Below are positions 5,428-7,392 of a DNA stretch of 64,000 nt, in pieces. The position numbers and the translations under genes were made by a program. This DNA is from Escherichia coli (GTDB lineage Bacteria > Pseudomonadota > Gammaproteobacteria > Enterobacterales > Enterobacteriaceae). The notes under the pieces were generated by a model that did not search any database, was not told the DNA's origin, and saw only the letters and a list, made by a program, of their open reading frames with translations. The stretch lies in the NCBI RefSeq assembly GCF_050920415.1, contig NZ_CP169309.1; one strand, written 5' to 3'. Every line of letters begins with the position of its first letter. Position 1 is the first letter of the stretch.

Positions 5428-7392
5428 GTGAGCATGGATATAAGCGATTTTTATCAGACATTTTTTGATGAAGCGGACGAACTGTTGGCTGACATGGAGC
5501 AGCATCTGCTGGTTTTGCAGCCGGAAGCGCCGGATGCCGAACAATTGAATGCCATCTTTCGGGCTGCCCACTCGATCAAAGGAGGGGCAGGAACCTTTGG
5601 CTTCAGCGTTTTGCAGGAAACCACGCATCTGATGGAAAACCTGCTCGACGAAGCCAGACGAGGTGAGATGCAACTCAACACCGACATTATCAATCTGTTT
5701 TTGGAAACGAAGGACATCATGCAAGAACAGCTCGACGCTTATAAACAGTCGCAAGAGCCGGATGCCGCCAGCTTCGATTATATCTGCCAGGCCTTGCGTC
5801 AACTGGCATTAGAAGCGAAAGGCGAAACGCCATCCGCAGTGACCCGATTAAGTGTGGTTGCCAAAAGTGAACCGCAAGATGAGCAGAGTCGCTGTCAGTC
5901 ACCGCGTCGAATTATCCTCTCGCGCCTGAAGGCCGGGGAAGTCGACCTGCTGGAAGAAGAGCTGGGGCATCTGACAACGTTAACTGACGTGGTGAAAGGG
6001 GCGGATTCTCTCTCGGCAATATTACCGGGCGACATCGCCGAAGATGACATCACAGCGGTACTTTGTTTTGTGATTGAAGCCGATCAGATTACCTTTGAAA
6101 CAGTAGAAGTCTCGCCAAAAATATCCCCCCCACCAGTGCTTAAACTGGCAGCCGAACAAGCGCCAACCGGTCGCGTGGAGCGGGAAAAAACGACGCGCAG
6201 CAGTGAATCCACCAGCATTCGTGTGGCGGTAGAAAAGGTTGATCAATTGATTAACCTCGTCGGCGAGCTGGTCATCCCCCAGTCCATGCTTGCCCAGCGT
6301 TCCAGCGAACTGGACCCGGTTAATCATGGTGATTTGATTACCAGCATGGGGCAGTTACAACGTAACGCCCGTGATTTGCAGGAATCAGTGATGTCGATTC
6401 GTATGATGCCGATGGAATATGTCTTTAGTCGCTATCCCCGGCTGGTGCGTGATCTGGCGGGAAAACTCGGCAAGCAGGTAGAACTGACGCTGGTGGGCAG
6501 TTCCACTGAACTCGACAAGAGCCTGATAGAACGCATTATCGACCCGCTGACCCACCTGGTACGCAATAGCCTCGATCACGGTATTGAACTGCCAGAAAAA
6601 CGGCTCGCCACAGGTAAAAACAGCGTCGGAAATTTAATTCTGTCTGCCGAACATCAGGGCGGCAACATTTGCATTGAAGTGACCGACGATGGGGCGGGGC
6701 TAAACCGTGAGCGAATTCTGGCAAAAGCGGCCTCGCAAGGTTTGACTGTCAGCGAAAACATGAGCGACGACGAAGTCGCGATGCTGATATTTGCACCTGG
6801 CTTCTCCACGGCGGAGCAGGTCACCGACGTCTCCGGGCGCGGCGTCGGCATGGACGTCGTTAAACGTAATATCCAGGAGATGGGCGGTCATGTCGAAATC
6901 CAGTCGAAGCAGGGCACAGGTACTACCATCCGCATTTTACTGCCGCTGACGCTGGCAATCCTCGACGGCATGTCCGTACGCGTTGCGGATGAAGTTTTCA
7001 TTCTGCCGCTGAATGCTGTCATGGAATCACTGCAACCCCGTGAAGCCGATCTGCATCCACTGGCAGGCGGCGAGCGGGTGCTGGAAGTGCGGGGTGAATA
7101 TCTGCCCATCGTCGAACTGTGGAAAGTGTTCAACGTCGCGGGCGCGAAAACCGAAGCTACCCAGGGAATTGTGGTGATCTTACAAAGTGGCGGTCGCCGC
7201 TACGCCTTGCTGGTGGATCAATTAATTGGTCAACACCAGGTTGTGGTTAAAAACCTTGAAAGTAACTATCGCAAAGTCCCCGGCATTTCTGCTGCGACCA
7301 TTCTTGGCGACGGCAGTGTGGCACTGATTGTTGATGTCTCCGCCTTGCAGGCGATAAACCGCGAACAACGTATGGCGAACACCGCCGCCTGA
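5428..7392 (+). CDS. cheA: Chemotaxis histidine kinase CheA
   Basis: GTG start giving [28 protein letters not shown]..., 654 aa; HPt His in [14 protein letters not shown]; the ORF track TTG at 5374 is upstream of the accepted start. Confidence 0.93.

Follow-up and report, generated by a model that had tools for sequence, protein, structure and literature searches.

Organization of the cheA locus

The window analysed here, a stretch of 64,000 nucleotides of Escherichia coli DNA (contig NZ_CP169309.1, assembly GCF_050920415.1), carries cheA within the operon motA-motB-cheA-cheW. The gene is a single open frame of 654 codons plus a stop (Table 1), and the motB stop codon, TGA at 5421-5423, lies upstream of the cheA GTG. 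In the annotation of the nearest genome, E. coli MFDS1022581 (NZ_CP169399.1), the gene order is otsA, uspC, flhDC, motAB, cheA (5428-7392), cheW, tar, tap, cheRBYZ and flhBAE, followed by housekeeping genes and then by a lambdoid prophage adjoining yecE. We refer to the initiation codons of the long (CheA-L) and short (CheA-S) products of cheA as start(L) and start(S), respectively, and to individual codons by their number in the 654-codon frame (GTG1, ATG3, ATG98).

Table 1. Coordinates in the window of the features of cheA and of cheZ.
Feature	Position	Strand	Remarks
cheA long CDS (CheA-L)	5428..7392	+	654 aa; translation, Pfam, K-12 alignment
cheA short CDS (CheA-S)	5719..7392	+	557 aa; frame and stop common to CheA-L
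Shine-Dalgarno sequence GAGGTGA of start(L)	5417..5423	+	Overlaps motB stop; duplex with 16S 3' tail, -11.6 kcal/mol
start(L), GTG, CheA-L initiation codon	5428..5430	+	RefSeq start in NZ_CP169399.1 and in K-12 YP_010283911.1
In-frame ATG, codon 3, alternative candidate for start(L)	5434..5436	+	ATG in 80/80 species
His48 codon (CAC), P1, CheA-L only	5569..5571	+	...RAAHSIKGG... in translation
Near-invariant block CTGTTTTTGGAA, codons 90-93	5695..5706	+	U-rich, upstream of start(S); codon counts in 80 species
Shine-Dalgarno-like AAGGA, 4 nt before start(S)	5710..5714	+	-5.4 kcal/mol against 16S tail; K-12 identical
start(S), ATG, codon 98, CheA-S initiation codon	5719..5721	+	K-12 NP_416402.2 start; 291 nt downstream of GTG1
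CAAGAACAG, codons 99-101	5722..5730	+	3' arm of predicted hairpin, low synonymous variation; prediction and codons of 80 species
Codons 120-126 (C Q A L R Q L)	5785..5805	+	Includes CheZ-binding Leu123 and Leu126; translation, role from PMC7750401
Codon 284, CCC (Pro), T284P	6277..6279	+	P3 dimerisation domain, both isoforms; ACC to CCC; species and genome comparison
cheZ, intact	13715..14359	+	214 aa, hairpin-tip segment kept; translation and NZ_CP169399.1 annotation

Pfam searches with the translated protein matched Hpt at residues 8-100 (P1), the CheY-binding domain at 161-223 (P2), H-kinase_dim at 261-324 (P3), HATPase_c at 372-508 (P4) and the CheW-like domain at 514-640 (P5). All the domains of a class I CheA, from P1 (Hpt, with His48) to P5, are thus found within one ORF, and solved structures of E. 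coli CheA match residues 1-231 of the window protein. The sequence-only reading of this DNA had proposed that cheA opens with a GTG at 5428-5430 and retains an in-frame ATG at codon 98, the pair corresponding to the known starts of CheA-L and CheA-S. The GTG was borne out by reading of the sequence and by the 654-codon translation, and the codon number of the ATG by the interval separating the two starts, (5719-5428)/3 = 97.

Comparison with the K-12 locus

Window cheA was collinear with cheA of K-12 (b1888), with 98.1% nucleotide identity over 1965 nt and no indels. There were 38 nucleotide differences, synonymous or non-synonymous, and six amino acid differences (S156C, T234P, N259S, T284P, A395T and K484E), none of them in codons 1-155; T284P is private to the window genome. 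From -40 to +9 at both starts the window was identical to K-12, with 46 nt around GTG1 and 39 nt around ATG98 unchanged. The two genes lie between motB and cheW, are equal in length, have both starts at the same codons (1 and 98) and encode identical residues 1-155, and on this alignment window cheA can be regarded as the ortholog of b1888.

The RefSeq record of K-12 (NC_000913.3) annotates two CDSs for b1888, a long one at 1973360..1975324 (CheA-L, YP_010283911.1) and a short one at 1973360..1975033 (CheA-S, NP_416402.2), which is 291 nt, or 97 codons, shorter. The start of the short CDS, at 1975033, corresponds exactly to the window ATG at 5719, Met98 being the orthologous position in an ungapped alignment. 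The annotated starts agree with those of the window: NZ_CP169399.1 has the same long CDS, and the K-12 short CDS begins at the same ATG. As in the K-12 reference, cheA of the window should carry two CDS features; most automatic annotations, that of NZ_CP169399.1 included, list the long CDS alone.

Synonymous variation around the two starts

Sequences of cheA from 80 species of Enterobacteriaceae, among them Salmonella, Citrobacter, Enterobacter, Cedecea and Buttiauxella, were retrieved by means of six peptides. GTG1, ATG3, ATG98 and the block CTGTTTTTGGAA were found in all 80 species, although the count for Met98 is biased by one of the retrieval peptides (ETKDIMQE), which spans this residue; the statistics on synonymous sites are unaffected. 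Within the block, codon 90 was CTG in 79/80 species, and codons 91, 92 and 93 were TTT, TTG and GAA, respectively, in every one. Downstream of ATG98, codon 99 alternated between CAG and CAA, and the GAA-CAG of codons 100-101 was essentially invariant. Elsewhere in P1 the codon choice for the same amino acids varied freely, with near-maximal entropy.

Normalised synonymous entropy across the 80 species averaged 0.30 over codons 87-106 and 0.71 over the remainder of P1 (Mann-Whitney p = 3e-7). Among 12-codon windows the minimum was that of codons 90-101, and a value as low was obtained in only 181 of 20000 permutations. When the whole gene was scanned in 15-codon windows, the lowest entropy was that of codons 88-102 (0.28) and the next lowest that of codons 1-15 (0.44), against a gene mean of 0.63. 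The two deepest troughs of synonymous variation in cheA thus coincide with its translation starts.

A similar picture was obtained within the species. A 601-nt stretch around the two starts was present in 5378 of the 5426 complete E. coli genomes. Of these 5378, 5371 carried the 61-mer centred on ATG98 without change and 5331 that centred on GTG1, while control 61-mers at 5567-5627 and 5811-5871 were exact in 1708/5378 and 4405/5376 genomes, respectively. It is safe to state, on these comparisons, that the nucleotides around start(S) are under selection beyond the protein code, as would be expected for an internal ribosome-loading site. A literature search found no relevant prior report of synonymous constraint at start(S) of cheA.

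Outside the Enterobacteriaceae, position 98 was compared in short, partial N-terminal fragments of CheA. Serratia, Pantoea, Sodalis, Proteus and Halomonas/Vreelandella all had Met, as did every Enterobacterales-like fragment, and Leu was present in Achromobacter, Bordetella, Pandoraea, Azotobacter and Alcanivorax, where residue 97 was often Met or Val.

The initiation region of CheA-S

Absence of a sequence resembling a ribosome-binding site upstream of the internal ATG had been put forward as grounds for doubting start(S). Such a sequence, AAGGA, is present at 5710-5714, though it is a weak match in absolute terms. ATG98 ranked 13th in Shine-Dalgarno strength among the 51 in-frame ATG, GTG and TTG codons of cheA, and Shine-Dalgarno strength alone was rejected as a marker of start(S) because it does not discriminate. 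ATG81 has a stronger match than ATG98, but one that lies too near its codon. Accessibility of the mRNA at ATG98 was unremarkable, with a mean unpaired probability of 0.46 as compared with a regional mean of 0.40. Taken by itself, this one sequence would not distinguish ATG98 from chance; what makes it meaningful is its exact identity, in position and in sequence, with the experimentally characterised start(S) of K-12, together with strong nucleotide conservation centred on it. The comparative evidence, in contrast to the single sequence, was decisive in marking out ATG98.

The relatives of the window gene bear on how AAGGA is to be read. An AAG at codon 95, which gives AAGGA, was found in 8 of 80 unique sequences, namely the window, three Escherichia loci and four others including that of Cedecea davisae. 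The remaining 72 have AAA-GAT or AAA-GAC, that is AAAGA, before ATG98; most of the family thus differs from the window in having AAAGAT in place of AAGGAC. The canonical Shine-Dalgarno-like AAGGA, largely limited to Escherichia, is not the conserved determinant of start(S). With AAAGA before ATG98 in 72/80 relatives, lack of a recognizable ribosome-binding site would be weaker grounds for doubt than it sounds.

Other sources of the nucleotide constraint were considered. No sigma-70-like promoter site was found in 5300-6000, and no Rfam family matched within cheA; a promoter inside the gene and an RNA of known family were both rejected on these grounds. Minus-strand ORFs exist mechanically at 5386-5802 and 5454-5720, and an antisense overlapping gene was also rejected, since the constraint extends over only about 20 codons rather than over the length of an ORF.

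A 9-bp hairpin was predicted, in both the minimum free energy and the centroid folds, between 5695-5703 (CUGUUUUUG) and 5722-5730 (CAAGAACAG), with an 18-nt loop that contains both AAGGA and AUG98. The predicted arms fall on the very blocks in which synonymous variation is close to zero, and codon 99 would pair whether CAG or CAA (U-G or U-A). In Serratia 8/9 pairs are kept, one U-G being replaced by C-G. Covariation analysis of 88 sequences revealed a compensatory change in 0/9 pairs, with shuffles no different from the observed alignment, and the predicted folding of the 131-nt region around the hairpin showed no advantage over that of shuffled sequence (z = 0.39). Proteus, Sodalis and Vreelandella all retain Met98, yet in none of them is the helix intact. 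Lacking compensatory changes and lost in these three genera, a conserved hairpin at start(S) was set aside as an idea of low probability.

A somewhat broader proposal, which we regard as rather doubtful, is that the ribosome-binding site of start(S) may be non-classical, comprising the conserved CUGUUUUUGGAA and CAR GAA CAG, and that either the hairpin or a U-rich S1-binding enhancer could enable loading of the 30S subunit. If so, the hairpin or the S1-binding U-tract could permit loading of 30S on mRNA already undergoing translation from start(L), and could also set the ratio of CheA-L to CheA-S. No description of a hairpin or of an S1/U-tract role at start(S) was found in the literature searched.

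In public records, the E. coli CheA fragments P0068, P0075, P0064 and P0066 are frameshifted precisely within the T5 or GG run that shortly precedes start(S), at the equivalent of window 5698-5704. Such alleles would truncate CheA-L and leave the CheA-S frame intact; the frameshifts may be homopolymer sequencing errors.

Alternative interpretations

Two alternatives concern the starts themselves. The ATG at 5719 might do no more than encode a methionine within the P1 four-helix bundle, its conservation reflecting constraint on the protein or on codon usage. The low rank of its Shine-Dalgarno sequence and the position of Met98 within a highly conserved peptide are compatible with this. Constraint on the protein would not account for invariance at synonymous sites, where TTG, a minor Leu codon, TTT, GAA and CAG are each retained in 80/80 species, nor for a trough at ATG98 that is the deepest in cheA. 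Since, in addition, the K-12 sequence is identical and the short protein is both experimentally established and annotated in K-12, we consider this alternative highly improbable. The other alternative places start(L) two codons downstream, at the ATG at 5434, or at both this ATG and the GTG at 5428; CheA-L initiated at the ATG would have 652 rather than 654 aa. From 5428 the window reads GTG, then AGC ATG GAT ATA AGC GAT TTT TAT CAG, and the ATG is as widely conserved among the 80 species as the GTG. The GTG is missing in Proteus, where an in-frame TGA replaces it, and in Vreelandella, an ENA MAG and Azotobacter. In these, ATG3 is the sole available start, and it therefore looks like the ancestral start of CheA. 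Some E. coli GenBank records (P0134 and P0135) likewise give a 652-aa CheA that begins MDISDF at ATG3. Against this, GTG1 is kept not only in 80/80 Enterobacteriaceae but also in Serratia and Sodalis; the spacing from the GAGG core is about 7 nt to GTG1, which is near optimal, and about 13 nt to ATG3; and both K-12 RefSeq and PGAP use the GTG. GAGGTGA itself is retained in the common upstream variants among the 80 species. CheA-L was reportedly found to have 654 aa by Kofoid and Parkinson in 1991. The RefSeq start, the 654-aa figure and the Shine-Dalgarno spacing favour GTG over ATG3 as the probable start(L), and initiation at ATG3 is unlikely.

A different concern is that T284P, with both starts intact, has damaged the function of the gene, neither isoform assembling normally, or that the C at 6277 arose as an error in assembly. 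The substitution puts a proline in the first helix of P3, inside the Pfam H-kinase_dim match. Position 284 was Thr in 78/78 matched species of Enterobacteriaceae, and the exact 61-mer with the P284 base occurred in 0/4812 matching complete E. coli genomes. The exact P284 protein has been recorded once (WP_432781016.1), as compared with 104 contigs for its T284 twin, and cheA of the nearest genome, NZ_CP169399.1, differs from that of the window at nt 6277 only. A helix can sometimes tolerate proline, however, and T284P has no bearing on the existence of the two starts. Although of the three alternatives this is the one that we take most seriously, it is still less probable than a normal gene. 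T284P could impair both CheA isoforms even if both were made, which would make the window gene a chemotaxis-defective allele.

Roles of CheA-L and CheA-S

The biology of the two starts of cheA has reportedly been long established, by Smith and Parkinson in 1980 and by Kofoid and Parkinson in 1991. His48 in P1 of window CheA is the phospho-accepting histidine. In E. coli, CheA-L and CheA-S arise from alternative initiation codons of cheA (PMC2716512, PMC7750401, PMC3676780, PMC12350097). The gene has two such codons, CheA-S having its own endogenous ribosome-binding site, and production of both proteins, of about 71 and 61 kDa, is documented for K-12 (PMC2716512). With Met-98 as its first residue, CheA-S is without residues 1-97, and it brings CheZ to the poles via Leu123 and Leu126 (PMC7750401). 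It is devoid of the phosphorylation site, and its complex with CheZ dephosphorylates CheY-P faster (PMC3676780). Together with the dual CDSs of K-12 RefSeq and the identical start regions, this literature supports the proposed correspondence between the window and the known arrangement of the two CheA starts.

The explanation that best accounts for the anatomy of the locus, its identity with that of K-12 and the selective constraint at both starts, all of which were observed directly, is a normal E. coli cheA locus in which the starts of both CheA-L and CheA-S are used; we put its probability at roughly 0.93. One cheA frame would then give CheA-L and CheA-S from two in-frame initiation sites. 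Ribosomes initiating at the GTG at 5428, with its strong Shine-Dalgarno sequence GAGGTGA, would produce CheA-L, an autophosphorylating kinase of 654 aa with P1-P5. Because GAGGTGA overlaps the motB stop codon, start(L) is probably coupled to translation of motB. Ribosomes loading independently at the ATG at 5719 would produce CheA-S, of 557 aa, which keeps P2-P5. As the first 97 residues, including His48, are missing from it, CheA-S could not itself be phosphorylated. Its truncated P1 would expose the Leu123/Leu126 surface and bind CheZ, bringing the phosphatase to the receptor-kinase array. The window has what such an interaction would call for: C120, L123 and L126 of CheA, which are 100% conserved in the 80 species, are present, and cheZ is intact. 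By analogy with K-12, both isoforms are likely to be expressed in the strain from which the window derives.

Tandem in-frame starts that yield two proteins differing by an N-terminal domain are also found in clpB (ClpB 95/80) and infB (IF2 alpha/beta), each a single ORF in which a separate ribosome-binding site for the internal start lies within translated sequence. These are unrelated proteins, and cheA differs from both in that its short form is deprived of the catalytic phospho-acceptor and acquires CheZ as a new partner. As the standard case of internal-start isoforms in bacteria, cheA(L)/cheA(S) is cited together with infB (PMC12350097, PMC11005335). Tandem initiation of CheA-L and CheA-S is already known, being textbook material and already annotated, and it brings no new biology. 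Only mildly new are the signature of both starts as troughs of synonymous variation and the finding that AAGGA is not the conserved determinant of start(S). The trough signature could help to find internal starts elsewhere.

Other features of the window

In the first 34,992 nt, the window and NZ_CP169399.1 differ by four substitutions, after which there is a 1-nt indel. Besides nt 6277 in cheA, the substitutions within the first 35 kb are at window 2286 (A to C between uspC and flhD, in the regulatory region of flhDC), 7751 (A to G, synonymous, in codon 113 of cheW) and 29275 (A to G, a V7A change in yecE, at the junction with the prophage). By their positions, three of the four (2286, 6277 and 7751) belong to the flagellar/chemotaxis region.

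Between cheW and tar, an Rfam match to the C0465 sRNA was found on the minus strand at 7936-8013, scoring 77.6 bits (gathering score 40). The lambdoid prophage that adjoins yecE occupies the window from about 29276 to 64000. According to the annotation of NZ_CP169399.1, it contains integrase, excisionase and replication genes, an IS66 insertion, and lysis, terminase, portal, capsid and tail genes. Collinearity of the window with NZ_CP169399.1 is interrupted only by small indels, for instance one additional C at about 34993.
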